Shown here piece after piece: positions 3,237-62,033 of a stretch of DNA of 62,033 bases. Below the pieces are notes generated by a model. That model was given only the letters and a program-made list of their open reading frames with translations. It searched no databases and was not told the DNA's origin. Made by a program: the position numbers and the translations under genes. The first letter of the stretch is position 1. Each line of letters opens with the position of its first letter. Source of the DNA: a virus (Duplodnaviria > Caudoviricetes). The stretch is taken from IMG/VR virus record IMGVR_UViG_3300043777_000073, positions 1 to 62,033 of that record; one strand, given 5' to 3'.

Positions 3237-3532
3237 GACTGCACCCAGAACGGTACGGGCGGCAACGCCTCGAAGTGCCAGCGGTACCAGCAGACTTCCG
3301 AGGCGCCCTGCTCGTCGATGGCCACGCATCCGTCGCAGATGGGGCCAGGCGAGTGGACGGCAGGCCGGTCAACGCGCGCGGCTTCGGCGACGGTGAGCTG
3401 CATGTCGCAGTAGCCGCAGCGCACGGCGCCGTCGCCGCCGCACTTGTAGCAGACGGCCGCGCTCCCGTGGTCGTCGTAGATGAAGCACTCAGCGTCGCAT
3501 TCGGGGCATCGGGCAATATCGGTCGGGTGCAT
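3233..3532 (-). CDS. Cys-rich putative zinc-binding protein
   Basis: Four CxxC pairs; AGGAGG upstream. Confidence 0.6.
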   Translation of the reverse strand: MHPTDIARCPECDAECFIYDDHGSAAVCYKCGGDGAVRCGYCDMQLTVAEAARVDRPAVHSPGPICDGCVAIDEQGASEVCWYRWHFEALPPVPFWVQS

Positions 3533-3886
3533 GGTCGTGGCCCTCCTACAGGCTTCTAGGCGAGAATGTGTTTGCCGTGCTGGCGAGCCAGCGAGCGGGC
3601 GAGTTGTCCTTCGAGGTCGGCCGACGTGTCCGGGCGCGCAGCGCGGGCGAGGTCGCAGGCTTCGAGCCAGGTTGGGGCCATGCCGAGTTTGAGGAATCGG
3701 CGGGCCATGCGGCGCTGAATCGCGGTGAGGGTCACGACAACCTCGCAGCCGGCCGAACCGTGGCCGTCATGGTCGAGTACATGATCCAGCGGGCCGCGGT
3801 GTCGATGGTCTGCGAGACCTCGAAGGCGCGGAACTGGGCGACGGACACGGGCGCGACGGGAGCGGCGGGCGGAAGGATTGTTGCGT

Positions 3887-4087
3887 TCACGACTGCGCCG
3901 TCTTCCAGCCCGAGATGGGGCACCAGTACATGAGGGCGCGGCCCTCGTAGCAGATGACCGCGGAGAAGCCGCGGCGCCGCACCGCGTCCTTCGCGGCCGC
4001 TAGGCTGGTGCAGTCTTCGTCCGCCGAGCAGACGTAGAGTGACTTGACCGTCCAGAGAGCCGAGCTGTTTTGCGTTGCGTTGTTCAT
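3887..4087 (-). CDS. hypothetical protein, probably leaderless
   Basis: ATG 6 nt downstream of a -10-like box (MNNATQNSSALW...). Confidence 0.5.
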   Translation of the reverse strand: MNNATQNSSALWTVKSLYVCSADEDCTSLAAAKDAVRRRGFSAVICYEGRALMYWCPISGWKTAQS

Positions 4088-4093
4088 GGGAGT

Positions 4094-4122
4094 AGTATGC
4101 ATCCTAGCATTGCATGGCGCAA
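4094..4122 (-). promoter_or_regulatory. putative sigma70-type promoter TTGCGC-17-CATACT containing the CATGCAATGCTA motif
   Basis: 17-nt spacer in an AT-richer intergenic region. Confidence 0.45.
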
Positions 4123-4148
4123 GACAATAAACGCATGCCCATGTCGAT

Positions 4149-4367
4149 TTATCTTTCGGCCACTTTGACGTGTGGGACCTTGTAGCCGAGTCGTTCCGCG
4201 TAGGTCGAAAGCGCCTGGTAGTGCCAGCGGGATATCTCGACCTTGCCCTCAGACCAGCGCCACACAGTCGAGGCGGACACCCCGAGCGCTTTGCCGAGTT
4301 CCGTGACCCCACCCGCGGCCTTTGCGAGCTTTAGCCATGCCCCGGACAGCTTCGTCGTGCGATTCAT
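4149..4367 (-). CDS. Cro-like helix-turn-helix regulator
   Basis: GGVTELGKALGVSASTVWRWSEG HTH; ATG 4367 is coupled to the upstream stop. Confidence 0.8.
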   Translation of the reverse strand: MNRTTKLSGAWLKLAKAAGGVTELGKALGVSASTVWRWSEGKVEISRWHYQALSTYAERLGYKVPHVKVAER

Positions 4368-5476
4368 CGGATGGGCTCCTGGGTCATTTCGCCGTAGGCT
4401 TTGGGGAAGTCTCGCACGCACAAGTCCGCGGGCCACTCGGCCATGTTGCCGCCGTGGCCGTCGCGGAGCGGCATGATGACACCGCGCTCGCGGTCGCCTT
4501 GCGTCGGCCGGAAATCCTCGCCGCCAGCGCCAAGGGCGCAAGCGTAATCCTCGAATACGTCGTCGTCGCGCGCGTCATCGGTAAACACCGGCTGTCGGCC
4601 AAGTTGCTTGACGAATACACGCGCCGTTGCGGCGGCGGGATCCCGAGCCGCATCGAGCAGCTTGCGCGCCCAGGATACGTGGAATGGTCTCGCGTCGTGT
4701 CCACTCTCTCCGCCTACGATGACCCAGTCGAGCCCGCGCTCCCATGTGCCGCCAGCGCGCGCGATGTCTGGGCGGGGGTGCTGGAGTCGGTGTCCGTCCG
4801 TCGTGCGGAGCGTCCACTTGAGAAACGGCAAGAAGTCGACCGGGCCGAGCGCTGGCTCATAGCTCACGAATCGAACGGCGGCTGGCGAGGCCAGCAGAGC
4901 AGGTATCCGCTCGTCGGCATACTTTTGACTCTCGACGCTGACGCCGAGCCAAACGTTCGGGAGCGGCCACGGCATCTCGAAGCGCACCTTGTCGTGCCAG
5001 GCGTCGCCGTCTTGCATCATCTGACCGGCGAGCACAGCTAGCCGCTCGTGCATCTCCGTGCGGTTCGTGGCCATGTAGCGAGCGAGCCTGTCGGCGCGCT
5101 TGGTGAGAATCTGGAACGTGTGGCCGTAGTTCCGGTCGTGCATCGCGCACACGGCCATGACGGCGAACACGCGATCGATATCATGGTCCGCGAGGCCCTC
5201 GTGGAATAGGTCGCTCATGCTATTGACGAAGATGCGCCGACCGCGACGCCAGCGGATAGGGTCTAGCAGATGCGCCGGCACGAGCGCGACCTTGCGCGTC
5301 CAGCGCGGCCCGTGTTCCGTTCGCTCCGCGAAGCCATAGTATGGCAGGCCCGGCTTGGAGAATCGCGCGGCCTGCGACTCGGCGTAGCACGACTCGCAAC
5401 CCGGCGAGACGCGCGAGCAACCGCGAATCGGATTCCAGCTCGCGTCGGTCCACTGGATCTCGGACTTGGCGCCCAT
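4364..5476 (-). CDS. phage Gp37/Gp68 family (DUF5131) protein
   Basis: IQWTDASWNPIRGCSRVSPGCESCYAE, FVNSMSDLFHE, FQILTKR, NVWLGVSVE, RFVSYEP, DWVIVGGESG, FVKQLG. Confidence 0.93.
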   Translation of the reverse strand: MGAKSEIQWTDASWNPIRGCSRVSPGCESCYAESQAARFSKPGLPYYGFAERTEHGPRWTRKVALVPAHLLDPIRWRRGRRIFVNSMSDLFHEGLADHDIDRVFAVMAVCAMHDRNYGHTFQILTKRADRLARYMATNRTEMHERLAVLAGQMMQDGDAWHDKVRFEMPWPLPNVWLGVSVESQKYADERIPALLASPAAVRFVSYEPALGPVDFLPFLKWTLRTTDGHRLQHPRPDIARAGGTWERGLDWVIVGGESGHDARPFHVSWARKLLDAARDPAAATARVFVKQLGRQPVFTDDARDDDVFEDYACALGAGGEDFRPTQGDRERGVIMPLRDGHGGNMAEWPADLCVRDFPKAYGEMTQEPIR

Positions 5477-8161: not shown

Positions 8162-8613
8162 GCGGCATCTTCAATCCGCCCAAGCCCGTCGACCCTGCGG
8201 CCATCCGCCAGCGAGCCGAACGCGCGACCGCAGCCCCATGGGTCTCGCGCGGCCTGCACGGCTCTCTCATCCTGCCGGGCGCGATGGGCGAGAACGCCAT
8301 GGGCTTCGAGGCGACGCACGCCGACTTCAACTTCATTGGCCACGCTCGCGAAGACGTGCCCGAGCTGCTCGACGTCGTCGACGCGCTCGCGCGGCTTCTG
8401 CTCAACGCCGAGGGCCAGATCGGAATCCCGCCTGCGGCGCCGCGCGAAGGCGTGGACGACCACGACATCCTGCTCACGTATCGCTGCGACGAGGTCGTCG
8501 ACGCACTGGCGCTTCTGGGCCTGGACACGAAAGAGAAGAGGGACGAGGCGCGGCGCAAGCTCTCGTGGGCGGGCGGCGGGACACTCGGCAAGGTAAAGGA
8601 GCAAGGACCATGA
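8158..8613 (+). CDS. hypothetical phage protein
   Basis: AIRQRAERATAAPW...ADFNFIGHAREDVPELL, a motif common in phage early genes. Confidence 0.7.
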   Translation: MSGIFNPPKPVDPAAIRQRAERATAAPWVSRGLHGSLILPGAMGENAMGFEATHADFNFIGHAREDVPELLDVVDALARLLLNAEGQIGIPPAAPREGVDDHDILLTYRCDEVVDALALLGLDTKEKRDEARRKLSWAGGGTLGKVKEQGP

Positions 8614-27791: not shown

Positions 27792-29621
27792 ATGGGCACG
27801 TTCGACGTCACCCTAAAGACCGGAGCGACGCCGCTCTTCAACATCGGGCTATCGGGCTCGGCGTCTGTCGTATCACCGTTCGGCATCGAGTCTGGCGAGT
27901 TCGTCGGCGCAGCCTCCATCGTCGCGCTAGTAGGACCCTATGGTGTCCCGTCCGGTGAGGCGCTAGGCCCTCCGGCCGTCGCCGTAGTCGTATCGCCGCA
28001 AGGCGTCCCGTCCTTCGAGACGGCCGGGGCATCGTCGGTCGCCACGGTCGTCACTGCGTCGGGCATCGAGACAGGCGAGGCGGCAGGCGCACCTTCGCTT
28101 CTCCCATACGCGAAACCGGCCGGCATCGATCCGGGGGAGTTTGCTGGGCCTCCGTCGCTCGCGCTCGTCCTGAATCCGTACGGGGTTGACTCCGGCGAGG
28201 CGGCAGGCGCATCAGCCATCGCTGTCGCGGTCTCGCCGTACGGTGTTGATTCTGGGGAGACTCCAGGCGCACCGAGCCTCGTCCCCAAAGTCAGCCCTGC
28301 AGGGCCAGACACCGGAGAAGCACTAGGGCCTCCAACTGCTGCGCTGTCGCTCCAGCCGAGCGGCATACAATCAGGCGAGAGCGTCGGCGCACCGACTACG
28401 CTTCTCATTGTTACGCTGGCTCCGGCTGGCGTCGACTCCGGGGAAAGCCTCGGAGCCCCAACACTTCTGCCGACGGCGAACCCCGCCGGCATCGAGACTG
28501 GCGAGAGCGCCGGACCCCCAGCGCTGGCCCTCGTCGCGAAAGCGACGGGGATCGAGTCGGGCGAGGCACTCGGGCCCGCGTCCATCGCCGTTGCAGTCGC
28601 GCCGGCTGGCATTGACAGCGGCGAGCAAGCGGGCGCACCGACGGCGCTGCCCACGCTGTCGCTATCCGGCATCGAGCCTGGCGAGCAGACCGGCGCTCCC
28701 GACGTTGCGCTCGTGGTCTCGGCCTCGGGCGTCGAGTCGCAGGAGATCGCAGGCGCACCGAGCCTCAAGCCGACGATCGGGGCCTCGGGCATCGACAGCG
28801 GCGAAGGCGTAGGCCCAGCTTCACTCACCCCGCAGATTCTTGCGAGCGGCATCGAGAGCGGCGAAGCCATCGGGCAGACGCTCATCATCTCGGCTTTCGG
28901 GCCTCTGCCTGCAGGGATCGAGAGCGGCGAGGAGGTCGGTGCTCCGAGCATCATCTCGATCGTCTCGGTCTTCGGCATCGAGTCGAGCGAAGCTGTTGGC
29001 GCTGCGACACTCACGCCGATCGTCTATCTGACGCCGGAAGGCGTCGAGAGCGGCGAGGATGTTGGGGCCCCTTCGGTCGCTGTTTCGACACCGACCGCGC
29101 TGCCGCGCACGGGCGGCGACTTCGTTGGCTTCGGTATCTTCGATCGTACGCGGCGCGCGAGCGTAGCCAGCGCGAAGGCCCTTCTTGCCGTCGACTTCGA
29201 TCTGGCCGAGCCGACGTTCGTTTCGGTCCGCGCCAAGAAGATCAAGCCGAAGGCGACGGTACACGGGCCCGTCGACCAGGCGCGACCGCTCAGCGACTCT
29301 GACGCAGCTCGGCTGGCCGACGCGATCGGCCGAGTGGCCGATGTCCGAAGCTACGCGAGCGCGTCCGCTCAGTCGCTCACCTTCGATCTCATAGAACCTG
29401 CTGCCACGTCGGCGTCCAGCGGGCACGCGGTCATCGGCGAATCGCGCGAGGCCACACTGGCGAAGGCCAGTGCGGTTAGCGCATCGTCGGCTACCGCCGG
29501 TACCATCGTCAAGAAGTCGCCTCCGAGTGAGCGAGAACGCGCGGTCGCGGAGATGCGGCTCGGGTGGCGCACGGCGGCGGTCGCGAGCCGGACGAGCCAT
29601 CGCCACAAGTGGGCAGCGTGA
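27792..29621 (+). CDS. tandem-repeat protein (about 19-aa G[IV][ED]SGE.. repeats)
   Basis: About 20 repeats of P.G(I/V)(E/D)(S/T/P)GE..G.P(S/T). Confidence 0.8.
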   Translation: MGTFDVTLKTGATPLFNIGLSGSASVVSPFGIESGEFVGAASIVALVGPYGVPSGEALGPPAVAVVVSPQGVPSFETAGASSVATVVTASGIETGEAAGAPSLLPYAKPAGIDPGEFAGPPSLALVLNPYGVDSGEAAGASAIAVAVSPYGVDSGETPGAPSLVPKVSPAGPDTGEALGPPTAALSLQPSGIQSGESVGAPTTLLIVTLAPAGVDSGESLGAPTLLPTANPAGIETGESAGPPALALVAKATGIESGEALGPASIAVAVAPAGIDSGEQAGAPTALPTLSLSGIEPGEQTGAPDVALVVSASGVESQEIAGAPSLKPTIGASGIDSGEGVGPASLTPQILASGIESGEAIGQTLIISAFGPLPAGIESGEEVGAPSIISIVSVFGIESSEAVGAATLTPIVYLTPEGVESGEDVGAPSVAVSTPTALPRTGGDFVGFGIFDRTRRASVASAKALLAVDFDLAEPTFVSVRAKKIKPKATVHGPVDQARPLSDSDAARLADAIGRVADVRSYASASAQSLTFDLIEPAATSASSGHAVIGESREATLAKASAVSASSATAGTIVKKSPPSERERAVAEMRLGWRTAAVASRTSHRHKWAA

Positions 29622-30919: not shown

Positions 30920-32122
30920 ATGAAGACCCTTCTGTCACTCACCAAGGACCGCGACGACGCTCTCAAGGCCGTGGCTTCGGCTACGAGCGCGGGTGCGCGC
31001 AAGAAGTCGCTTGCCTCGCTCGAGGCCGCGTCGCTCGCTCTGGCCAAGTTCCAGGCTCAGCTCGCATCCAAGGCGGCAGCTCGCAAGCCGGTCGCCGCCG
31101 TCGACGCCGACGAGGAGGATAGCGACGACGAGGAAGAGGAGAGCGAAGAGGAAGAAGAGGAGTCGACCGACTCATCGGACGACGAGCCCAAGAAGCCGAT
31201 GGAGAAGAAGTCCAAGAAGGCGAAGGCCAAGTCGAAAGACAAGGACGACGACTCCGACGACGATGACGGGGACGACGACGACGACGAAGACGAAGAGGAA
31301 GAAGACGAGGAGGAAGAGGACGACGAAGAGGAGACCTCCGACTCCGAGGACGACGACGAGGAGGAAGAGGACGAGGAGGACGACGAAGAGGAAGAGGAAG
31401 AGCGCGCCGCAAGCGCGTCGGCCCTCGCGTCCGCTCGCTCGGTGCTTTCGGCGGCCAAGAAGGCAAACGACCGCCGCGCCATCACCTCGGCCCGCGCCCA
31501 CTTCAAGTCCGTCAAGTCGGCCGTCGCCGCCATGAGCAAGACCTCGGCGCGCTACCACAAGCTCAAGGCCGTCTGCGCCGCTGTCACCGGCAAGAAGGGC
31601 CTGCAGAGCATCCTCGGCGGCATCCAGGGTCTCGCGGTCAAGGCCGCGCAGGAAGAGGCCAACACGCGCGACATCGCCAAGATGAAGGCGGCCTCGAAGG
31701 CCAAGCGCGTGAACGACATGCTCGCGCAAGCGGTCGCCGACGGCAAGATCACACAGAAGACCGTGCCCATCCTGCGCGACGGCATGACCAACACCAAGAC
31801 GCTGCGCGCGTACCTCGGCGCTCTGCCGAAGCTCGTGCGAAGCACCAAGGATCCCGAGCTTGTCGGGCGCACGCTTCGTGGCAGCACGGACGCAACGGCC
31901 GACAAGGACCGCCAGGAAATCCTCGACTTCCAGGCGCTCAGCCCCGACCTGCAGAAGTACGTCACGCAGGAAGCCGCTGCGCAGGGCAAATCGATCGACG
32001 ACTTCATGAAGTCGATGCAGGCCGTGTCGGCGAAGGCTGGCGGCGGCGTGTCTCCCATCGCGGTCAAGCGGGCCGAAGCGGACTTCATTCCCCACCGTTC
32101 GAACGGTGCAGCAGGTCAGTAA
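30920..32122 (+). CDS. putative capsid scaffolding protein with a long Asp/Glu tract
   Basis: Lies between protease and capsid genes; LAQAVADGKIT motif. Confidence 0.65.
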   Translation: MKTLLSLTKDRDDALKAVASATSAGARKKSLASLEAASLALAKFQAQLASKAAARKPVAAVDADEEDSDDEEEESEEEEEESTDSSDDEPKKPMEKKSKKAKAKSKDKDDDSDDDDGDDDDDEDEEEEDEEEEDDEEETSDSEDDDEEEEDEEDDEEEEEERAASASALASARSVLSAAKKANDRRAITSARAHFKSVKSAVAAMSKTSARYHKLKAVCAAVTGKKGLQSILGGIQGLAVKAAQEEANTRDIAKMKAASKAKRVNDMLAQAVADGKITQKTVPILRDGMTNTKTLRAYLGALPKLVRSTKDPELVGRTLRGSTDATADKDRQEILDFQALSPDLQKYVTQEAAAQGKSIDDFMKSMQAVSAKAGGGVSPIAVKRAEADFIPHRSNGAAGQ

Positions 32123-51115: not shown

Positions 51116-52150
51116 GTGACGCGCAATTTCAAAGCCGTCCTCGCGGGCTTCGCCGCTTTTATGCTCACGCTCGGCGCGGCCGAGGGCTGCAAGAAGAGCA
51201 AGACGCCGCCACCCGTGCACTACGGCGAGTACGCGCCGGGACAGCTATTGCCAGCGAACCCGAGCCTAGGGTCGGTGCCGTACTTCGGCGATTCCGGGGC
51301 CGGCGCCTGGGCGAACAGCCCGGCGCCCGCAGCCGGTCAGTGTCTACAAGCCTACGGCGTATGGGGCAGCTGCGGCGGCGTCCTGCCGGATGCCGGTGCC
51401 GGAGGCCTCTGGTACCAGAACGACGCGGGAGCGATTACCGCGCTGCCGGGCAGCACCACCGGGCAGTTTTTGCAGACGCAGGGCACGAGCGGCGCCCCGC
51501 CGCTCTGGGCCGTCCCAAACTCCTCGGGCGACGAAGGCACGATTGTCGCGCCACCGACGATTGCCAGCTCGACGTGGACCGACATCAATTTCGGCAGCGG
51601 CACGACGGCCGTCGATTCAGGCCGGGCCGGATTCACGACCGTTTACCTTTCGGACTTCACGACCGGCGGCGCCGAGGTCATCCGTGGGATCTCGCAACCC
51701 CTAAGTTCCGCCGTCTACACGTTCACGGCGCGAGTTCGACCGCTCCTCTACCCGGCGAACAACTCGAGCGCCGGCATCGGGATCACCGATGGGACGAAGC
51801 ACATCGTCATCCAGCTCACGTTCGTCTCCGGTGGCGTGGACATCCAGGTCGTCAAGTTCACCAACTCGACGACCTTCTCGGCTAACTACTACGCGAACCC
51901 GTGGAACATCGGGCAGAACGCTCCCTTCTGGCTTCGGATCAAGAACGACGGCACGCACCGGAACATGAACTACTCGAGCGACGGCGTGAACTACTTCCCG
52001 GCGACGATTGGTTCCTCGAGCACGTGGCCGACCTACACGAGCGCGACCGACTTCATCACGACCGAGACGGCCGCCTCGCTCATCATCGACCCGCTCAACG
52101 GCACCGGCTCCGGCGTCACCGTCGAGAGCTGGCAGATCACCTACCCATGA
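51116..52150 (+). CDS. putative receptor-binding protein with lectin-like C-terminus and signal-peptide-like N-terminus
   Basis: GQFLQTQG...PLW fibre motif; WLRIKNDG...YSSDGVNY. Confidence 0.6.
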   Translation: MTRNFKAVLAGFAAFMLTLGAAEGCKKSKTPPPVHYGEYAPGQLLPANPSLGSVPYFGDSGAGAWANSPAPAAGQCLQAYGVWGSCGGVLPDAGAGGLWYQNDAGAITALPGSTTGQFLQTQGTSGAPPLWAVPNSSGDEGTIVAPPTIASSTWTDINFGSGTTAVDSGRAGFTTVYLSDFTTGGAEVIRGISQPLSSAVYTFTARVRPLLYPANNSSAGIGITDGTKHIVIQLTFVSGGVDIQVVKFTNSTTFSANYYANPWNIGQNAPFWLRIKNDGTHRNMNYSSDGVNYFPATIGSSSTWPTYTSATDFITTETAASLIIDPLNGTGSGVTVESWQITYP

Positions 52151-52551
52151 GCGACCCGAACGATCCCCAAGTCGTCTACACGATTGGCCTGCAAGGCCCT
52201 TCAGGTCTGCCGATGCTCTGGCAAGGCGCGCTCGCGATCACGCCATCGCAGTCGCCCTACTCGGCGAAGGTCCTGCAGCCGGTGCCAGTCGACTGCCGCA
52301 CGGGCGCGGTGACGGTGCAGCTCCCGGCGCTCACGGACTCGTCGACGTGCGTTGTCGCCATCAAGGATCTCTACGGGGCGAGCGCCACGAACAACATCAC
52401 GGTGCTGCCGGTGTCGGGACTCGGAACGGAGGTCGAGGTCCCGGGCTCTCCCGGCACGTACGCGAGCACGACGGTCATCGCGAGCAACGGCGCGGTCGTC
52501 TGGTACGTCGCGATGTTTTCGATCAATGCGTGGATCATCTGGGTGCATTGA
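52147..52551 (+). CDS. putative tail-fibre-associated protein
   Basis: VDC.TGAVTVQLPA...IKD..GAS.TNNITV; similar to the C-terminus of 50542-51114. Confidence 0.6.
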   Translation: MSDPNDPQVVYTIGLQGPSGLPMLWQGALAITPSQSPYSAKVLQPVPVDCRTGAVTVQLPALTDSSTCVVAIKDLYGASATNNITVLPVSGLGTEVEVPGSPGTYASTTVIASNGAVVWYVAMFSINAWIIWVH

Positions 52552-55652: not shown

Positions 55653-56414
55653 ATGCTAGCTGCCGCCAGGATGCTCGTCGCCTCGCTCTCGCTGCACCTC
55701 GGGGTCGTCCCCGCGCCATCGGTCGCGGAGGCCATCGCGCGGACGGTCGCCGCCGAGGTCGCGCCGGTCCTGGGTTCGCACGCGCTCGACGCGGCGCTCC
55801 TTCTCACGTACTGCAAGGGCGAGACACGGTGTGCCGACGTCACCCCCGCCGGCGACGGCGGCCAGGCGCAAGGCCCCTGGCAGCTTCACGGCCCGTGCAA
55901 CACCGAGCCCATCGCCAAGCAGGCCGTCTGCTGGCTCAGGATTGCCGCCTGGAGCGTCAAGGCCTGCGCCGCCCTGCCGGAGCCAGAGCGGCTCGCCGCG
56001 CTTGCCTCGGGCAACTGCGGGCACGGGCACGTCATCAGCCGCACCCGCTGGCATGAGGCCGTGGCCGCGCTAAAAAACGTACTCGGTAGGAGGGATCGCG
56101 AGATGTGCACGTTCTCAATGGTGGTCGATCAGATTGGGCCATTCATCCCCGATATCGACCCGACGTGGCGGCCGCCGCCGACCATTCCGGTCTTTACGCC
56201 GAACAGCGTCTCGCCATACTCGATCGAACAGATCGAAGAGTGGCGCAGGTTCTTCGAGGACGCGAAGGCCAAGCTAGAAGCAGCCAAGGCGGAAGACGCG
56301 GCCGCCGGGACGCCGGACTGCACGGACCCGAGCAAGGCGCCCATCCTCGAGCGGCTCGCGGAAATGGAACGCCGACTCGCAGCAATCGAAAAGGCCGTAG
56401 GCCTGAAAGGATGA
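55653..56414 (+). CDS. hypothetical protein (lysozyme-like N-terminus possible; may be two fused genes, second start 56103)
   Basis: ET...GDGGQAQGPWQLH; internal AGGAGG before MCTFSMVVD. Confidence 0.5.
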   Translation: MLAAARMLVASLSLHLGVVPAPSVAEAIARTVAAEVAPVLGSHALDAALLLTYCKGETRCADVTPAGDGGQAQGPWQLHGPCNTEPIAKQAVCWLRIAAWSVKACAALPEPERLAALASGNCGHGHVISRTRWHEAVAALKNVLGRRDREMCTFSMVVDQIGPFIPDIDPTWRPPPTIPVFTPNSVSPYSIEQIEEWRRFFEDAKAKLEAAKAEDAAAGTPDCTDPSKAPILERLAEMERRLAAIEKAVGLKG

Positions 56415-56417
56415 CCC

Positions 56418-56660
56418 ATGCACTATCGAAACGGACGTGAAGCCAAGAACGGGGACCAGATCGTTTCACTCGGACCCGACGGCAAGGTGCTCGGTGTCGG
56501 TATTCTCTACAACGCCGTGGCCGGCAACGACTACTGCAATGGGGCACTGGCGCTGATTCCGGGTCCCACGTACGCCTGCCTGGTCGACGCGTTGCACGTG
56601 GACGACCTCGCAGCGCTGCTCGCCGAAAAGGGACTCGACAAGCGACCTGCCGGAAAGTGA
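56418..56660 (+). CDS. hypothetical protein
   Basis: MHYRNGREAKNGD...GNDYCNG; AGGA RBS. Confidence 0.7.
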   Translation: MHYRNGREAKNGDQIVSLGPDGKVLGVGILYNAVAGNDYCNGALALIPGPTYACLVDALHVDDLAALLAEKGLDKRPAGK

Positions 56661-56817: not shown

Positions 56818-57483
56818 ATGACCGACTACAGCGCAGGGCCAGCGCCCGAAGGCCTCTGGATTGACGTCGACTTCGTGCTGACGCCTCCGAAGCTCACGGC
56901 GCTCAAGGCCTACGTACACCCGCAGCACGGGCCTGTGCTCGGTATCTTCGGCTACTCGGAGCTGCCGAGCGAGACGGTCGACGGCACCGTGTGGACCGCG
57001 CAAAGCCTGGCCGACGCGACCGGCGAAGGTTTCGCGTGCGGCTGGATACAGCACCCGCTCTATCCCAACTGGGTTCCGTCGGAGAACCTTGGGGCCATCC
57101 ACGAGGAGCACGCGAGCGCCTACGCGGCCTCGGTGGGCTTCCCTGGCTCGATGCATGGTGGTCTCGACGTCGAGGGCGCAGGCGCACCATCGTATGGCTA
57201 CGCGGTCACGTGGGCGACCAATCGGGTCCAGCGCGGGGGAGGGTGCCTCGGATACCACGGCTACAAGCTCGGGATGTCCCTGGAGCAATTCGCAGCCATG
57301 GCGAACGTCACCAGCTACTGGCGCGCGCTCAACTCGCCGCCGCTACCTGGCCTGCGAGGGGATGCTGTCATCCAGCTTTACCCGAGCGTTACGATCCCTG
57401 GCGTGGGCGAAGTGGACCTCGACCTCGTTGCGAAAGACGCAAGAGGCGAGCTGCCGCTCGTCTGCTCGAAGCTCGCCGCCTAG
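56818..57483 (+). CDS. putative endolysin (DUF1906 / GH25-like glycoside hydrolase)
   Basis: GGAGG RBS; IDVD...A..VGFP.....LDVEG...GYHG...YW...IQ pattern. Confidence 0.55.
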   Translation: MTDYSAGPAPEGLWIDVDFVLTPPKLTALKAYVHPQHGPVLGIFGYSELPSETVDGTVWTAQSLADATGEGFACGWIQHPLYPNWVPSENLGAIHEEHASAYAASVGFPGSMHGGLDVEGAGAPSYGYAVTWATNRVQRGGGCLGYHGYKLGMSLEQFAAMANVTSYWRALNSPPLPGLRGDAVIQLYPSVTIPGVGEVDLDLVAKDARGELPLVCSKLAA

Positions 57484-57494
57484 CTCACCACACC

Positions 57495-57546
57495 CGAAAC
57501 GACAGCGCCGCTGGCCCTCACCGGGTCGGCGGCGATTCGTCGTTTG
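57495..57546. terminator. long imperfect hairpin between convergent operons
   Basis: aaacgac..cgccgctggccc-tcacc-gggtcggcggcg..gtcgttt. Confidence 0.65.
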
Positions 57547-57591
57547 TGGGCGCCAGCTGGAGCCTGGCGCGCAGCGTGTCGCGCAGCGTCC

Positions 57592-57963
57592 CTACACACT
57601 GCGCAGCGAGAGACTGTCGTAACCGCTCAAGAGATTGAGGCTCACCGCATCGAGAACGTTGCTCGGGTAGTCCTTCTCCTGCTTATTGAAAATACGATTC
57701 GCCTCCTTTGACAGAGCTTCGCGAATCAGTTTTCGCTCATACTCCCGACCAGCCAGAAACATCGGGTCGTGGTCGCGTTCCCACGTCTGACACGTTGGGC
57801 AAATAAGCTCTGGGGGAGGCGGCATGGGCCCCACGTATGTGGTGCGCGGGAACTTGTCGTCGGCCGACCGCTTCGACTCCTTGTCTCCACACACCGGGAA
57901 CGCAGCGTGACCGTCGTAGACATGCAGCAGTTTGCCAGCGTAAATCTGTTCCCATCCAAGCAT
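57592..57963 (-). CDS. hypothetical protein
   Basis: AAGGA upstream; MLGWEQIYAG... Confidence 0.6.
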   Translation of the reverse strand: MLGWEQIYAGKLLHVYDGHAAFPVCGDKESKRSADDKFPRTTYVGPMPPPPELICPTCQTWERDHDPMFLAGREYERKLIREALSKEANRIFNKQEKDYPSNVLDAVSLNLLSGYDSLSLRSV

Positions 57964-58021
57964 CGTCGTCACCATTCCTTCGGTCCGCGGCCACAAGCGC
58001 GCAGCGTCGCGCCGTTGTTCC

Positions 58022-58252
58022 CTACCATCTATGACCGTTGTTTCCGTCCAGATGCTGACCTTCGTGGCCACGGAGCAGTGAGCATTCCCACACTCCGTCC
58101 GGGTCATCCGGGATGCCGTTCAGGACAGAATCGCACCCTCCGTGCGCCTTCGCGGCAGCGGCCCACTCGTGGGCGCACGGATGGCACATGCCGTCATCGT
58201 CGTAGCCGTCATCCACTTCGTAATATTCTCCGCAATCTTCACACTCGGGCAT
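58022..58252 (-). CDS. small Cys/His-rich protein
   Basis: GGAGG RBS; CxxC pairs and C...GHEGQH. Confidence 0.65.
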   Translation of the reverse strand: MPECEDCGEYYEVDDGYDDDGMCHPCAHEWAAAAKAHGGCDSVLNGIPDDPDGVWECSLLRGHEGQHLDGNNGHRW

Positions 58253-58307
58253 CGGGGACCTCCGTCCACAAGCAGGACGCGCGCACTCCCGCGCGTTTCG
58301 TCCTTAC

Positions 58308-59519
58308 TCAACCCTTCACGCAGACGACGCCCTTGAGCGTGTGCACGACCTCCACGAGGTCGGCCTGGGCCGCCATGACGTCGTCCACGTTCTTGTAGGC
58401 GCGCGGGCTCTCGTCGATGACGTCGGCATCCTTCCGACAGACTACGCCAGCGGTGTCCGCCTCGTGCATCGCGAGCGTGATTTGCTTCTTGGCCGCACCG
58501 CGGCTCATTACCCGCCCTGCGCCGTGGCTGCACGTGTGGAAGCTGTCCGCGTTGCCCTTACCGCGCACGATGAACGACTTGGCGCCCATGCTCCCAGGGA
58601 TAATGCCCAACTGTCCAGCGCGAGCGCTCACGGCCCCTTTGCGCGTGATCCAAAGGCTCTCGCCGAAGTGGGCCTCGCGGCTCACGTAGTTGTGATGGCA
58701 TTCAACCGCTTCGGGGCCGACCACGGCGAACCTCGTCTCGCCAAAGAGCCTAGACATTACGGCGACGGCCGATGCCATCATCGATCGCCGGTTCTCGTGC
58801 GCATACTCCTGAGCCCAGGCGACCGCATCGACGTAGGCCGAAAACTCCGGCGTGCTTTCAGGGAGCCACGCGAGGTCACGATTCGGGAGCGTGATGCCGT
58901 CCGACTCGCACCGCTTCTTGGCGAGCGCGATGAAGTGCGACCCGATCGCGTTCCCGACGCCACGCGAGCCCGAGTGCAACATGAGCCAAACGCGGTCCGT
59001 CTCGTCCAGACAGACCTCGACGAAGTGATTGCCTGTCCCGAGCGTCCCGAGCTGCCTGGGCGCCCTGTCGGCCGCTCGCGGCATGCCGATGCGCTCGAAG
59101 CCGGGAGCCATCGTAGCCCAGCGTGCGGCCACTTCGGTGGGAACAGTACCCCACGCACCGCGGTCGTTCGCGCCACCATTGTCGGATCGCCCGTGCGGAA
59201 TGGCCTCTTCCAGCGCCTCGAAGACGGCCCGCGCATCGTCGCCCAGGTCCGTGCTCGTGAGCGTGGTCGGAGACGCCGCCATGCCGCACCCAAGGTCGAC
59301 GCCTACGCAAGCCGGCACGATGGCCCCTCGCGTCGGCACGACACTGCCTACGGTCGCACCCATGCCCCAGTGCACGTCGGGCATGACCGCGACGTGCGGC
59401 CACACAATCGGGAGGCTAGCCGTTTCGATGAGCTGTTTACGCGCGACGTCTTCGACTGGCACGCCACGCACCCATGCCTTCACCGGCACCATTCCTCCGT
59501 CGATGGTCTCATACGTCAT
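58308..59519 (-). CDS. rtcB: RtcB RNA ligase
   Basis: MPDVHWGMGATVG, VGVDLGCG, LGTLGTGNHF, HSGSRG, CHHNY, RKGA, PGSMG, SHGAGR, DESPRAYK; AGGAG RBS. Confidence 0.96.
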   Translation of the reverse strand: MTYETIDGGMVPVKAWVRGVPVEDVARKQLIETASLPIVWPHVAVMPDVHWGMGATVGSVVPTRGAIVPACVGVDLGCGMAASPTTLTSTDLGDDARAVFEALEEAIPHGRSDNGGANDRGAWGTVPTEVAARWATMAPGFERIGMPRAADRAPRQLGTLGTGNHFVEVCLDETDRVWLMLHSGSRGVGNAIGSHFIALAKKRCESDGITLPNRDLAWLPESTPEFSAYVDAVAWAQEYAHENRRSMMASAVAVMSRLFGETRFAVVGPEAVECHHNYVSREAHFGESLWITRKGAVSARAGQLGIIPGSMGAKSFIVRGKGNADSFHTCSHGAGRVMSRGAAKKQITLAMHEADTAGVVCRKDADVIDESPRAYKNVDDVMAAQADLVEVVHTLKGVVCVKG

Positions 59520-59586
59520 CGCAGTCCGCTCCTTTCGGTCATGTCGAAATGCCTCGCGCGCAGCGTAGGCGCGATTGTGACTACCT

Positions 59587-59844
59587 TCACGCCCTCGCGT
59601 CGTCATGAATGCGACGCAGGCGCCCTAGCGCGGCAAGGCTCGCTCGACCGAGTTTGACAGCCAGGTCCACCGTCGCCTCTTCGGCGCTCTTGCCCTTGCC
59701 GACCGCAATGGGCGACTCAGACCGAGGCGACAGCTCGGCTCGATAGAACTCGCTCGTCTCGTCTGGCACCGACACGAGCACGCTCGTCGGGAGCCTGCAC
59801 ACGCCATCGTATCCGTCGTTTTCGCACGCCTCTTGAGTGTTCAT
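59587..59844 (-). CDS. hypothetical protein
   Basis: AAGGAG RBS. Confidence 0.6.
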   Translation of the reverse strand: MNTQEACENDGYDGVCRLPTSVLVSVPDETSEFYRAELSPRSESPIAVGKGKSAEEATVDLAVKLGRASLAALGRLRRIHDDARA

Positions 59845-60066
59845 TGTCTTCGTCTCCTTCTGTTTCGGTTGATTGCTAGAAGTCCGCGCGCACTCCCGCG
59901 CCGTTGTTGTCTACGTTGAGCGACACCGAAAGCGACCGGCGAGGCCGAGCACCCTCGCATCCACCGGGTTCAAAGTCCCGATGCTCCGGCTCCCGATTCG
60001 CCAGCCCACCGACGTCATCGTGGGTCCAGACCCTCAGACTTGAGCTACGGCCGCTTTCGATGCCGC

Positions 60067-60330
60067 TCACTTGCTTGGCTCCTCATCCCCGAGCCCATCG
60101 GTCGCGTTGCGCAATGTTGCTTCGTCTGGTGGCGGGAACCAACAGAAGTCGCACGCATCGGGGAGATTGTCGTACGCGCCAAGACACCGCCCTCGAACAC
60201 GCCAGCAGATGGCACACCGGAAACGATGAACGACTTTGCATTTGCAGTCGTGCGCATGGGGCACGGGTCGACCTTGGTGAAACCGTATCGGCTGCACTCG
60301 GTCTGCTGGTCTGATTGCCTCAAGGTTCAT
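60067..60330 (-). CDS. Cys-rich hypothetical protein
   Basis: GGAGG RBS in the junction arm. Confidence 0.55.
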   Translation of the reverse strand: MNLEAIRPADRVQPIRFHQGRPVPHAHDCKCKVVHRFRCAICWRVRGRCLGAYDNLPDACDFCWFPPPDEATLRNATDGLGDEEPSK

Positions 60331-60574
60331 GTGCCCCGTCCTCCCTCGCGCGCATCACTTCGGGGATGCTCCGTACCTTCGATGCCGTTCTCGGTCCGCG
60401 TCGCGGCACATGCGGTCAAGTCGCTTCACGGCCGCCCGATACTTCTTCCCACCCTTGTAGTGGAGCATCGTGCGCCAAAGCACACGAACGCGGTACGCGC
60501 GCTCCGGCCTGGGCAAGCTCCACTCATTCACGGCGTTCCGTTCTCCCTCGCGCGCACTCCCGCGCGTTTCGTCC

Positions 60575-60781
60575 TTACTTTTCACCACGTGCAATCAAGA
60601 TGACGTCGGCAACGAGTAGCGGTCGCTGCCACTTTCCTTTTTGGCCGAGTCCGTTCTCGCGTGTGAATCGGTAGCTGCCGCAATTCGAGCAGTCTTCGCG
60701 CGCCATACTGCCGAAGCCGAACGCGACCATGGGCTTCGGGTGACGACATCGCGCGAGACGCAGCACGGCGGTATGAATCAT
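60575..60781 (-). CDS. hypothetical protein
   Basis: ATGA-coupled; CxH and CxxC. Confidence 0.5.
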   Translation of the reverse strand: MIHTAVLRLARCRHPKPMVAFGFGSMAREDCSNCGSYRFTRENGLGQKGKWQRPLLVADVILIARGEK

Positions 60782-61212
60782 CGGCGTCCCATCACGTCGA
60801 GCGACGAAGCCTCATCGAAAACGCCCGCAGAAGTGTTTGGCTCCGTCTTCGCTTCCGAAAGCCTCCGCGCCTCATTCACAAGGCTGTAGGTCTTGTCGCA
60901 CTCGGCACAATGCTCGACGCACGAGACGCCGGGGCATGTGCATCCGAGCGCGTACTGGTCGAGTCGTGCAATTGTCCGCGCGAGCATCGTACGCAAGGCG
61001 TCGCCGTACTGTTTCTGCGCGTCGGCAATCACCGTCCAGCGGTTCCGAGCCTTCGTCATCTCTTCGAGATCGGCTTCCGCCCTAGCGAGCCTTGCGCGAC
61101 TCTCGATTAGCCGCGTCTCGGTGCCGGCTAGAAGCTCTGGGCAGAACGCCTGGTGTTCGACGCCGAGCGCTGTCTTACGCCCGCCGCACGCATCGCAAAC
61201 GAGGTAGCTCAT
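60778..61212 (-). CDS. hypothetical zinc-finger / coiled-coil protein
   Basis: ATGA-coupled. Confidence 0.55.
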   Translation of the reverse strand: MSYLVCDACGGRKTALGVEHQAFCPELLAGTETRLIESRARLARAEADLEEMTKARNRWTVIADAQKQYGDALRTMLARTIARLDQYALGCTCPGVSCVEHCAECDKTYSLVNEARRLSEAKTEPNTSAGVFDEASSLDVMGRR

Positions 61213-61460
61213 GGCAACGGCTCCCATCGTCCAGGCAGCCAGTGAAGCGCCTCTCCGATGCCCCAATTCTTCCAATGCTCATCGCACCTGAGCGAGCGAA
61301 CTATCACGCGACCGCTTCGCGTTCGACGATGCCTCGTAGGCCTCTGAGGGCAACGTCCGCCGCCACTCTCATGCTGGCATCGGCGGTGCTCAGTTTCGGT
61401 ATGCGGGGTATCGACGCCGCACACGGGGCATGAAAACGTACCTGTCGGAACTGCACTCAT
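61209..61460 (-). CDS. hypothetical protein
   Basis: GGAGG RBS; CPVCG.DTPH. Confidence 0.55.
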   Translation of the reverse strand: MSAVPTGTFSCPVCGVDTPHTETEHRRCQHESGGGRCPQRPTRHRRTRSGRVIVRSLRCDEHWKNWGIGEALHWLPGRWEPLP

Positions 61461-61519
61461 GTCGCCTCCGTTTGCCATTGTCCTATCACCCCTCGCGCGC
61501 AGCGTATCGTCGATCATTC

Positions 61520-61981
61520 CTACGTCTTCGCTGGAAAATACACATGTCCGCTATGGTGTGCTTCGCCAGTTCGTTCGCATTCTCCGCACGAAATGTGCTC
61601 GCCATTTTTGACAGCATCGGCCAACGCGCGAGGATGCTGCATCGCAGGTTGTTCACGAAGCCACTCAACAATGCGTAAGCGTTCGGCCCGCAGCCTCACC
61701 ACTTCATCGCGAAGCTCCTCGGCGAGCGCGTCCCATTCGATTCCGCGCCGGTCGTCCAACGCGAGACATCGGTCAGCCATCTCGACGCAATCGAGAATTT
61801 CGACGATCCCGCCTTCGCACTCGTCGCACCCGTCGCCCATACATTCGGGGCACTCGGAGGCGATGGCGTCGCAGTGCTTGCACTGAAGGTGCTCGCCGTC
61901 GTCCGTGCGAATCTCGGTACACCAGTGGTGCTTCTGGCCCACGCACTCAGAGCATCGCTTGCAATCGGTCATTTCCTTCAC
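61520..61981 (-). CDS. Cys-rich hypothetical protein
   Basis: Multiple CxxC; GGAGGTG/AAGGA RBS. Confidence 0.6.
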   Translation of the reverse strand: MKEMTDCKRCSECVGQKHHWCTEIRTDDGEHLQCKHCDAIASECPECMGDGCDECEGGIVEILDCVEMADRCLALDDRRGIEWDALAEELRDEVVRLRAERLRIVEWLREQPAMQHPRALADAVKNGEHISCGECERTGEAHHSGHVYFPAKT

Positions 61982-62033
61982 CTCCTAGAAGTCCGCGCGC
62001 ATCACTTCGGGCTTGAATCCGACATTGACGCCT

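Follow-up and report, generated by a model that had tools for sequence, protein, structure and literature searches.

Promoter-early stem-loop (PeSL) motifs of T4-type phages are reported to mediate gene shuffling (Arbiol et al. 2010, PMC2839356) and are also treated in Comeau et al. 2014 (PMC4122927). As described there, PeSLs are conserved, AT-rich sequences of ~100 bp carrying a sigma-70 promoter and a terminator stem-loop with experimentally shown activities, and mini-circles have been demonstrated (PMC2839356, PMC4122927). A model of phage mosaicism based on short conserved boundary sequences is attributed to Susskind and Botstein and to Clark et al. (cited in PMC3029335), and the same source describes it as generally viewed as unsupported for most mosaic joints. 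Stoperators of Cluster A mycobacteriophages are described as 13-bp asymmetric repressor sites across whole temperate-phage genomes (PMC9283540). Among the SAS/ESAS motifs of Cluster K, the SAS is described as placed directly at start codons (PMC3203893).

The window, meaning the whole stretch of 62,033 nt of viral DNA that we analysed, contains an array that forms a hyperplastic block of small, mostly ORFan genes. A signal is found at nearly every gene boundary of the array and relatives show swaps there, hence it looks like a built-in gene-shuffling joint. We lean towards an explanation in which TGCGCGC-centred junction elements divide co-oriented accessory cassettes, and exchange based on homology or microhomology swaps these cassettes in uncultured soil phages. 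The genes and junctions of the array are, in the order of transcription:

61994..62023, minus strand: junction 1, arm A (..cccgaagTGA) and core TGCGCGCG at 61994-62001, leader gacttctaggagg; matrix score 25.9
61520..61972, minus strand: g1, 150-aa Cys-rich ORFan; one cassette
61494..61523, minus strand: junction 2, stop TAG, arm E (ggaatgatcgacgatacgc) and core; 5' edge of the g2-g4 cassette
60575..61460, minus strand: g2-g3-g4, 83, 144 and 68 aa with ATGA overlaps; one cassette
60549..60578, minus strand: junction 3, stop TAA, arm B (ggacgaaacgcgcgggag) and core; 3' edge of the g2-g4 cassette
60355..60531, minus strand: g5, 58-aa ORFan; arm A encodes its final five residues, GASPK*
60347..60376, minus strand: junction 4, arm A (ggagcatccccgaagTGA, read ..GASPK*) and core; 5' edge of the g6-g7 cassette
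59876..60330, minus strand: g6-g7, 87 and 64 aa with a GTGA overlap; one cassette
59885..59914, minus strand: junction 5, arm C (aacaacggcgcgggag) and core; 3' edge of g6-g7 and 5' edge of g8
59587..59844, minus strand: g8, 85-aa ORFan; leader and 5' end shared with L132
59555..59584, minus strand: junction 6, arm D (caatcgcgcctacgc) and core; upstream of rtcB
58308..59519, minus strand: rtcB, RNA 3'-phosphate/5'-OH ligase family; between two junction elements
58278..58307, minus strand: junction 7, arm B and core; downstream of rtcB, 5' edge of the g9 cassette
58022..58252, minus strand: g9, 76-aa Cys-rich ORFan; also found in L145
57996..58025, minus strand: junction 8, stop TAG, arm (ggaacaacggcgcgacgc) and degenerate core TGCGCGCT; 27.4 bits
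57592..57963, minus strand: g10, 123-aa ORFan; also found in L137 (78% nucleotide identity)
57566..57595, minus strand: junction 9, last element, two tandem partial cores and TGCGCGCC; 18.1 bits

The gene g1 matched no Pfam or PHROG family. Some genes take their last codons from the upstream arm (..ASPK*), and g7 is a weak ORF running through the core of junction 5 to a TAG. Junction 9 has no downstream gene; the array abuts there a convergent plus-strand gene stopping at 57483. The original prediction treated rtcB as a cassette, which stands only in part. Two junctions flank the gene here, but the complete relative G001 carries rtcB at another place, on the opposite strand, as an ordinary gene lacking junction elements.

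The core occurs nine times on the minus strand between 57566 and 62001. Seven copies are exact matches to TGCGCGCG (plus-strand starts at 58278, 59555, 59885, 60347, 60549, 61494 and 61994) and two are degenerate, namely TGCGCGCT at 57996-58003 and TGCGCGCC at 57566-57573. The seven positions match exactly those named in the original prediction, which also listed both degenerate copies and quoted arm sequences that we confirmed letter for letter. The cores had further been placed at or near gene ends on one strand. All are on the minus strand, and eight of nine lie entirely inside the 391 non-coding nucleotides of the array (8.8% of its length), with the ninth (59885-59892) falling in the final codons of g7. 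Three gene junctions lack a core and consist of ATGA or GTGA start-stop overlaps (61212, 60781 and 60070). Across the whole window TGCGCGCG is not enriched, with 14 copies on both strands against 24.7 expected from dinucleotide shuffles. Half of these (7/14) are the minus-strand array copies, which fall within 3.6% of the search space (binomial test, 2e-7). Enrichment on the array strand (4467 nt) persists against a CG-aware background, with seven copies observed against 0.42-0.89 expected under Markov models of order 1-5 (Poisson P 4e-5 to 3e-7). The apparent depletion outside the array disappears at Markov orders of at least 2 (7 vs ~11).

The core belongs to a junction element of ~30 nt. 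The element consists of a stop codon, a GGAnnATC block and TGCGCGC, followed by the ribosome-binding leader of the next gene. We assembled 81 junctions from this contig, the IMG/VR relatives G001 and G002, and nine metagenome contigs; all 81 sites were chosen by the TGCGCGC pattern and therefore carry it by selection. This core is the element's invariant centre. The alignment revealed a conserved upstream template (G-22, T-21, GGA, ATC, CG, G-2) and an eighth core base that is mostly G (G 50, A 22, T 8, C 1). When trained solely on 50 junctions of other metagenome contigs, a weight matrix recovers all nine array sites of the window at 18-34.5 bits. Its hits are confined to the arrays with few exceptions (9/11 in the window, counting hits of at least 14 bits over both strands of its 62 kb, 11/13 in G001 and 9/10 in G002), and a scan of 80 RtcB-bearing viral loci gave no hits. 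The element is always sited between a stop codon and a ribosome-binding site, its orientation strictly follows transcription, and the spacing from core to start codon is 11-40 nt in the window, G001 and G002. In many upstream arms a further, degenerate core lies 2-7 nt upstream of the main one, which creates two neighbouring sites. Tandem cores without an intervening gene occur in L132 (660/673), L139 (1567/1588), G001 (53800/53775) and at junction 9 of the window. Degenerate cores are kept at other junctions, including TACGCGCG at G001 52279, TGCGCAC at G001 55152 and TGCGCGA in L145. Junctions match at 100% over 22-38 nt between genomes with only 65-70% identity in structural genes. The junctions contain no sigma-70-like promoter, no intrinsic or T-tract terminator, no Rfam family and no attC-like architecture, and their hairpins are not more stable than expected from composition.

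The arms on either side of the core assort freely. No linkage is seen between the classes of upstream and downstream arms (mutual information 0.589 vs 0.635 permuted, p 0.72), and 37 of the 66 combinations occur, which bears out the predicted pairing of upstream arms with differing downstream arms. The eighth base is tied to the downstream arm (mutual information 0.81 vs 0.44 permuted, reached in 0/2000 permutations) and shows no link to the upstream arm (p 0.66).

Gene content differs strongly among the arrays. Comparing 49 crudely called array ORFs (12 in the window, 22 in G001 and 15 in G002), only g2-g4 are common to the window and G001. Two weak partial matches link the tail of g6 to a G002 gene and G001 51315 to g1 (37% over 38 aa). 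Otherwise, the window and G001 are collinear at 66-91% nucleotide identity. The highest-identity segment between both genomes is the 961-bp g2-g4 block, which matches G001 51317-52277 at 95.8%. The identity extends from 61499 to 60539, beginning 2 nt into the core of junction 2 and stopping 9 nt past the core of junction 3. Further breakpoints fall at the core. Homology begins at core base 1 for g9 against L145 (58285; 267 bp, 92.5%) and for the g8 leader against L132 (59892), and homology of g7 to L137 stops within the core at 59886. L137 and L146 share 303 bp at 96.7%, spanning -13 to +19 around two cores. Contigs from three other soil runs behave alike. Record 22 of run X4 matches g6-g7 from core to core (59886-60360) with 6 differences in 475 nt and dissimilar flanks. 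Matches to X2 record 8 and X3 record 16 break off at 61501 in junction 2, and the match to X2 record 7 stops at 60542-60550 in junction 3. Other ends lie off the core: the g9 match to L145 runs only to the stop codon, 17 nt ahead of the core, g10 homology to L137 begins 14 nt past the core, the core-less GTGA overlap of g6 and g7 is a breakpoint against L137, and a 40-nt block within g6 is common to otherwise unrelated genes. Taken over 20 informative alignment ends, ~13-14 lie within ~25 nt of a core, counting the cores of both partners, and the remainder inside genes. Because gene boundaries and cores nearly always coincide, breaks at the core are not fully separable from gene-boundary breaks kept by selection. 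The arrays share few genes, similarity switches at the core and the arms assort freely, all of which supports the predicted shuffling of cassettes by crossovers at the core, in relatives as well as in independent metagenome contigs.

No recombination gene was found in the window, where the original prediction had likewise seen no recombinase, although this is uninformative since the contig is rated 69% complete. A search of the three genomes, including the 100%-complete G001, found no tyrosine or serine recombinases (PF00589, PF00239). Instead, exonuclease and annealing-protein genes are located upstream of the arrays: a RecT-like protein (PHROG, 7.6e-17) and a PD-(D/E)XK exonuclease (1.2e-15) on the array strand in G001, and ERF (1.5e-17) and YqaJ (3.9e-22) in G002.

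Under the explanation we lean towards, a cassette would begin with its own leader and ribosome-binding site immediately after a core and end with a stop codon and the upstream arm leading into the next core. On encounters between related phages, entire cassettes would be exchanged, inserted or deleted by recombination at the junction elements, and the crossover would resolve within the 7-nt core. Such homology- or microhomology-driven exchange might be aided by the phage exonuclease and its single-strand-annealing partner, of RecT type in G001 and Erf type in G002. Phage annealing proteins are reported to be able to recombine diverged sequences (PMC3945230). The route would be akin to that of PeSL motifs rather than to an integron-type site-specific reaction. 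We infer both the enzyme making the crossover and the reason why the element is kept. The element probably has a role in expression as well, and the small CopG-type DNA-binding protein encoded at the array head is a candidate for binding the palindromic core.

A possible though doubtful alternative, in line with the regulatory or RNA role that the original prediction also allowed, is that the element serves mainly as an expression signal, such as a stoperator-like operator or roadblock site for the array-linked CopG-type protein, or a signal acting on the polycistronic RNA. The cassette pattern would then be a by-product of illegitimate recombination occurring anywhere, with selection keeping joints at intact, signal-bearing boundaries. 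The strict orientation and the fixed place between stop codon and ribosome-binding site fit such a role. Junction 9 precedes no gene, hence the element goes with gene ends. CopG/RHH genes head the arrays of G001 (28.5 bits, cut-off 20.5), L137 (95% identical copy) and, slightly below the cut-off, G002 (20.3 bits). RHH proteins such as MetJ bind tandem short palindromes. Stoperators and SAS/ESAS, as described, set a precedent for many short, oriented intergenic motifs (PMC9283540, PMC3203893). However, selection alone explains neither the switch in similarity at the first core base in several independent pairs nor the linkage of the eighth base to the downstream arm. The lack of a promoter, terminator or known RNA family at the junctions and the variable distance to the start codon also argue against a primary expression signal.

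We regard it as unlikely that a dedicated exchange system with integron-like logic operates here, in which a phage or host enzyme cuts and rejoins at the palindromic TGCGCGC(A). The enzyme would be neither a tyrosine nor a serine recombinase, possibly a nuclease with annealing repair, and the arms would be cassette-borne parts of the site. What different arm types have in common is just the 7-nt core and a loose template, which is very short for the annealing-protein recombination of the favoured explanation, so the free assortment of arms fits a site-specific enzyme at least equally well. Crossovers mapping within this short invariant part, free assortment of arms, fully identical junctions between diverged genomes and the second degenerate cores all agree with such a system, and the tandem, gene-less cores resemble empty sites. 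Nuclease-type genes are present as well (HNH in G001, T5orf172/MUG113 in G002). Yet the window, G001 and G002 share no conserved candidate enzyme outside structural genes, and the complete G001 lacks both recombinase families. Several breakpoints adjoin the core instead of falling inside, and degenerate cores survive at junctions. The negligible alternatives of chance or composition (a CG-rich word in a genome of 65% G+C) and of intergenic remnants of one tandemly duplicated ancestral gene agree with the unenriched window-wide count, but are refuted by the one-strand excess under Markov models, the placement of eight of nine cores in non-coding DNA, the recovery of the extended element by the weight matrix and in at least 12 other contigs, the lack of relationship among the array genes, and the recurrence of one cassette in other contexts at 96-99% identity.

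Among known systems, stoperators and SAS/ESAS are similar, as described, in being multi-copy short intergenic motifs in one orientation relative to transcription and conserved within a phage group. The junction element differs from these in being limited to one array, in its variable distance to start codons and in marking recombination joints. The boundary-sequence model, as presented in the cited source, predicts module swaps by general recombination at short conserved gene-boundary sequences. Here, the sequence is explicit, found at almost all array junctions and common to diverged genomes.

The proposed analogy to integrons holds for the outcome but not for the mechanism. As in integrons, cassettes are co-oriented, carry one or few genes and have unrelated neighbours, and no sigma-70-like promoters were found within this array. 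Both systems divide the site at a short core; its larger part thereby rides with the cassette's 3' end and sometimes overlaps the ORF end. The attC sites of integrons follow an R''/L''-L'/R' pattern over 57-141 bp with a GTTRRRY core. The junction element, in contrast, is ~30 nt long, conserved in sequence rather than structure and without attC architecture, and no IntI, tyrosine recombinase or any integrase gene was found in the phage.

The closest known system are PeSL motifs. The junction element differs in its length of ~30 nt, its G+C-rich composition with a 7-nt invariant palindromic core, and its lack of a sigma-70-like promoter, T-tract terminator or hairpins above composition. It also stems from a separate group of uncultured soil phages with genomes of 62-91 kb. 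Both are repeated intergenic motifs packed in hyperplastic regions rich in small ORFans, and both follow the stop codon of one gene and precede the Shine-Dalgarno sequence and start codon of the next. In both systems, relatives differ by inserted, deleted or replaced DNA whose joints fall inside the motif, and whole genes are thus shuffled together with their signals.

The ~30-nt element between the genes of the minus-strand array probably serves as the joint at which cassettes of one to three genes recombine. It consists of the core TGCGCGC and of upstream and downstream arms flanking it. All seven exact copies of TGCGCGCG and both degenerate copies listed in the original prediction were found in place on the minus strand. 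Across the whole window, TGCGCGCG occurs 14 times against 24.7 expected from dinucleotide shuffles and is thus not enriched overall. The proposed enrichment holds within the 4467-nt array strand, where seven copies were seen against 0.42-0.89 expected from a CG-aware background (P 4e-5 to 3e-7; analytic expectations under Markov models of order 1 to 5). The non-coding 8.8% of the array holds eight of the nine cores, and the ninth falls in the last codons of a weak ORF. Just three array junctions lack a core, all of them ATGA/GTGA start-stop overlaps. A chance origin of the core cluster is excluded.

The window is the entire assembly, one contig of 62,033 bp with ~65% G+C, and the virus record is rated linear and 69% complete. 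A search with the large terminase led to the IMG/VR contig G001 (90,916 bp), which has direct terminal repeats and is rated 100% complete. The terminases share 82% protein identity, and the two genomes are collinear at 66-91% nucleotide identity. The main gene blocks are as follows:

Window, ~6.7 to 57.5 kb, plus strand: plus-strand genes
Window, ~2-6.6 kb and 57.6-62.0 kb, minus strand: minus-strand genes
Window, 62033 to 57566, minus strand: array block with junction elements, upstream side cut by the contig end
G001, 56910-51334, minus strand: array, with the element at 11-13 junctions
G001, 69670-70793, plus strand: rtcB, 72% nucleotide identity, with ordinary flanks and no element

All array genes of the window (g1-g10 and rtcB) are on one strand, and the final element (57566-57573) has no gene downstream. 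A terminator-like hairpin (57522-57539) lies between the end of the last array gene and a convergent plus-strand gene ending at 57483.

Outside the array, an 18-bp tandem repeat stands in seven copies at the start of the contig (1-127). On the minus strand, these copies read as a Gly-X-Y (collagen-like) repeat that closes a long open frame, which runs from 2292 to 1 and off the contig; the match to Pfam Collagen reaches 24 bits, below the cut-off. The assembly probably broke inside this repeat. The same frame (1-2292) holds a DNA methyltransferase domain at ~1700-2050, minus strand (Pfam N6_N4_Mtase 31.2 bits; PHROG 67, 4.6e-22); circular joining of the contig would place this domain upstream of the array and on the array's strand. 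Pfam and PHROG assigned little in the first 16 kb (1-16 kb) beyond this DNA methyltransferase, DUF5131 and a small-terminase-like HTH protein. Periodic 60-nt repeats at 27868-29071, within a 609-aa gene (27792-29621), suggest repeated domains in the product of that gene, perhaps a fibre or decoration protein. The gene at 30920-32122 contains a long Asp/Glu-rich repeat (31090-31408).

Motif scans recovered a more distant relative, G002, a 37,956 bp fragment with 9-10 junctions within 2.6 kb and with structural proteins 30-57% identical to those of the window. A metagenome scan yielded ten more array contigs (L132, L133, L137, L139, L140, L141, L143, L144, L145 and L146); L141 is part of L145, and an eleventh scan contig, L135, is G002 itself. 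Three sites were found in the viral contig L156. The exact 26-nt pattern of arm type B had no match in viral contigs. Scanning bacterial and archaeal genomes for arm A plus core gave seven matches, all single coincidental sites, with no array, prophage or host among them. None of 80 viral loci reached through RtcB carried other array genes or the element, and the nearest RtcB (71%, in L001/L002) stands in an unrelated context. In blastn against a phage GenBank collection, rtcB was the sole match.

Aligning junctions from the window and its relatives on the core gave 81 sites, after 8 coding or tandem-partner sites and 3 L141 duplicates were left out of 92 TGCGCGCN sites. The invariance of TGCGCGC is by selection of sites, as this pattern was used to pick them. 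The eighth base is most often G (50 junctions), followed by A (22), T (8) and C (1), and TGCGCGCA is a perfect palindrome. Upstream of the core, the junctions share a template of G at -22, T at -21 (stop codon), GGA at -18 to -16, A-T-C at -13 to -11, C-G at -8 and -7, and G at -2. The arms first described as different are therefore variants of one ~30-nt element. With the commonest upstream variant, GGAGCATCCCCGAAGTGA, the frame of the preceding gene continues through the element and closes with ..ASPK*; g5 has this ending, as do several unrelated G001 and G002 genes. After the core comes the leader of the next gene, whose ribosome-binding site lies within the variable downstream arm. In the window, G001 and G002, the start codon follows the core by 11-40 nt, and at many sites the ribosome-binding site begins 1-5 nt past the core. 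A weight matrix trained solely on the 50 metagenome junctions recovered all nine sites of the window, with only two further hits there.

The central claim of the original prediction, that cassettes are shuffled at the core, is supported by the breakpoints, since sequence shared between arrays is bounded by the element. The block g2-g4, three genes joined by ATGA overlaps, is 95.8% identical over 961 bp between the window (60539-61499) and G001 (51317-52277), the top identity anywhere between the two genomes. The match starts 2 nt into the core of junction 2 and stops 9 nt past the junction-3 core. The G001 array has this block in next-to-last place, and in the window seven further genes follow it. 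Sharing begins at the first core base for g9 and L145 (267 bp, 92.5%) and for the leader of g8 and L132, and it extends up to the sixth core base for g7 and L137. Contigs L137 and L146 have 303 bp in common that begin 13 nt ahead of one core and reach 19 nt beyond the start of the following one. Contigs of four other public runs were also compared with the array. One of 1112 nt (run X4) matches 59886-60360 with 6 differences, which is g6-g7 from core to core, and both of its flanks are unlike the window; its loose end past the core is a leader type also present in G001 and L137. Contigs of runs X2 and X3 match g2 up to 61501, the first base of the junction-2 core, and for g4 the X2 match breaks off at 60542-60550, inside the junction-3 core or just beyond it.

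Some joints lie off the core. The match of g9 to L145 ends at the stop codon, 17 nt before a core, that of g10 to L137 starts 14 nt after one, and a further joint with L137 coincides with the core-less overlap of g6 and g7. Within g6, a 40-nt block has 95-97.5% identity to parts of G002 and L145 genes that are otherwise unlike g6. Overall, ~13-14 of 20 informative HSP ends fall within ~25 nt of a core, counting the cores of both partners. The g6 block (40-43 nt; 3' end of g6, 60067-60118, minus strand) encodes ..TDGLGDEEPSK* and ends in the GTGA overlap, and its counterparts are the ends of unrelated small genes (G002 8189-8231; L145 3489-3528). A T5orf172 protein of G002 also ends in ..TDGLGDEE. 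The block is a second kind of conserved joint, within coding sequence.

The composition of the junctions carries a further record of exchange. The eighth base is strongly tied to the four bases that open the downstream arm (mutual information 0.81 against 0.44 permuted, with none of 2000 permutations reaching 0.81), and shows no link to the class of the upstream arm (p 0.66). Between upstream and downstream arm classes there is no statistical link (0.589 against 0.635 permuted, p 0.72), with 37 of 66 class combinations seen among the 81 sites. Unlinked arm classes together with an eighth base tied to the downstream arm indicate frequent arm exchange that resolves inside the seven invariant bases.

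Gene content differs strongly between arrays. Among 49 crudely called ORFs of three arrays, the window and G001 share g2-g4 alone, barring weak partial matches (the tail of g6 with a G002 gene; G001 51315 with g1, 37% identity over 38 aa). The array proteins are unrelated to one another; none of 10 in the window had a significant Pfam match and none of 8 a PHROG family. They are likely involved in host takeover or counter-defence. In the window, junctions 6 and 7 flank rtcB, and the position of this gene outside the G001 array indicates that it was gained by, or lost from, the array in one lineage. Four GGTTCGA-like boxes downstream of rtcB in G001 (~73.5-80.5 kb; L003 13825-14965 and 20841) suggest, from their sequence, a putative tRNA gene cluster.

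Exchange is probably driven by phage annealing proteins, which would act through homology or microhomology between copies of the conserved element. This mechanism is the most consistent with the gene content of the relatives, which encode the following on the strand of the array:

G002, 3358-4260, array's strand: Erf-family annealing protein, just upstream of the array
G002, 4257-4871, array's strand: YqaJ-type exonuclease, just upstream of the array
G001, 61327-62295, array's strand: RecT-like annealing protein (PHROG 561, 7.6e-17; Pfam RecT 20.7 bits, below cut-off), upstream of the array
G001, 59584-60714, array's strand: PD-(D/E)XK exonuclease, upstream of the array

Homologues of either pair were absent from the window, whose contig ends at the array head. 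Such exchange has been proposed, and in part shown, for the PeSL motifs of T4-type phages (PMC2839356; PMC4122927). The low fidelity of phage annealing proteins fits this mechanism (PMC3945230).

An unlikely alternative is that the element is solely regulatory and that selection by itself placed the joints. This reading leaves the switches at the first core base in independent pairs unexplained, and the searches for expression signals bear on it as well. A scan limited to sigma-70-like promoters found none at 57000-62033 of the window, and none were found in the G001 array region. The core is ruled out as a -10 box by its spacing to the start codon and by ribosome-binding sites 1-5 nt after it. 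No junction carried an intrinsic terminator or any minus-strand terminator-like site. Rfam returned no family, only two sub-threshold chance matches within rtcB. Arm types B, C and F form hairpins of 5-6 bp of G+C with the core. Across 80 sites, arm plus core folds at -8.80 kcal/mol against -8.08 kcal/mol for shuffled arms, and 9 of the 80 pass the 5% level. A hairpin reading of the element was set aside, as overall stability is within what composition gives. Readings as a mini-ORF (MRADF*), ECF-type promoter, Chi-like, dif/Xer or IHF site, weighed on the sequence alone, were dropped for misfits of spacing or of consensus. Contig L145 carries ~100 nt (1606-1712) after its g9 homologue that are absent from the window. 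This insert has a G+C hairpin followed by TTTTA (terminator-like) and then an arm-D element with the decayed core TGCGCGA.

We consider it improbable that the array is a dedicated crossover system, a "phage integron" without integrase in which the palindrome TGCGCGC is the crossover site of a sequence-specific enzyme. The case for it starts from the weak point of the annealing reading, as different arm types have just 7 identical bases in common. The core may then be recognised by some enzyme, or by an array-linked CopG-type protein together with the phage annealing machinery. A CopG-type ribbon-helix-helix protein of 42 aa is encoded at the G001 array head (28.5 bits against a cut-off of 20.5). 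Its relatives are 95% identical in L137 and 64% in G002 (Pfam 20.3 bits, just under the cut-off). As a lead, this protein is a candidate binder of the palindromic core. The G001 head (56020-56585; L089 12021-12586, minus strand) is 90-93% conserved in L137 (154-761) and comprises the CopG-type gene and a 70-aa ORF that lacks a ribosome-binding site, with cores on both sides. A promoter-like TTGCGC-17 nt-TACTAT lies 7 nt ahead of the ATG of this ORF, which possibly gives a leaderless transcript. The integron likeness in the original prediction is not supported as a mechanism. The IntI-type tyrosine recombinase family PF00589 was found in none of the three genomes (the window, the 100%-complete G001, and G002), nor was the serine recombinase family PF00239, with control genomes positive for both, and there is no attC architecture. 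The original observation is confirmed, and its interpretation is supported in part.

The origin of phage genome mosaicism is a long-standing question. Module swapping at short conserved boundary sequences has been without clear examples beyond T4-type PeSLs (PMC3029335). In the present case the boundary sequence is explicit, a ~30-nt element with a 7-nt core for crossover. It occupies almost every junction of an accessory array and is conserved among phages with structural proteins only 30-57% identical, and breakpoints coincide with it in several independent data sets. The array is a compact, testable system for distinguishing annealing proteins from a specific enzyme, and for the minimal homology length and a dual role in expression. 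The weight matrix is a practical means to find hypervariable accessory-gene arrays in metagenomic phage contigs. If a "phage integron" were true, it would be a new mechanistic type, in which accessory genes, rtcB among them, would move as discrete units through capture, excision and transfer between co-infecting phages.

Compared with known systems, the array resembles an integron in outcome and in its co-oriented cassettes of unrelated genes, with no sigma-70-like promoter found here; it differs in lacking an integrase. The attC sites of integrons are imperfect inverted repeats of ~57-141 bp with R''/L'' and L'/R' boxes and a GTTRRRY core, whereas this element is ~30 nt long, has the core TGCGCGC and shows no excess folding stability. 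Imperfect intergenic palindromes of the REP/BIME type are dispersed in genomes encoding RAYT, a Y1 transposase. Here the arms move with flanking genes, which argues against independent insertion of a selfish repeat of this kind. Stoperators of Cluster A mycobacteriophages occur genome-wide in temperate phages, whose immunity repressor binds them, whereas the present sites occur in one array only and the search for an integrase gave none. The SAS/ESAS of Cluster K mycobacteriophages are 13-bp sites directly upstream of the start codon that overlap the ribosome-binding site, whereas this core lies 11-40 nt away. The element works in the manner of PeSLs, with a hyperplastic region of ORFans in which indels and replacements between relatives are joined in the motif, but it does not have their defining features. 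The sigma-70-type early promoter of PeSLs was not found in this element. As to their stem-loop terminator or attenuator, types B, C and F form the 5-6 bp hairpins, overall stability is no higher than with shuffled arms, no terminator-like site falls at a junction, and a role in termination is not evident. Searches of a set of open-access papers on the motif and phage, on PeSLs and on boundary sequences gave no description of this element. The model of conserved boundary sequences is regarded as unsupported at most joints, most of which have no such sequence (PMC3029335). To our knowledge, the present element is the clearest fit to that model.
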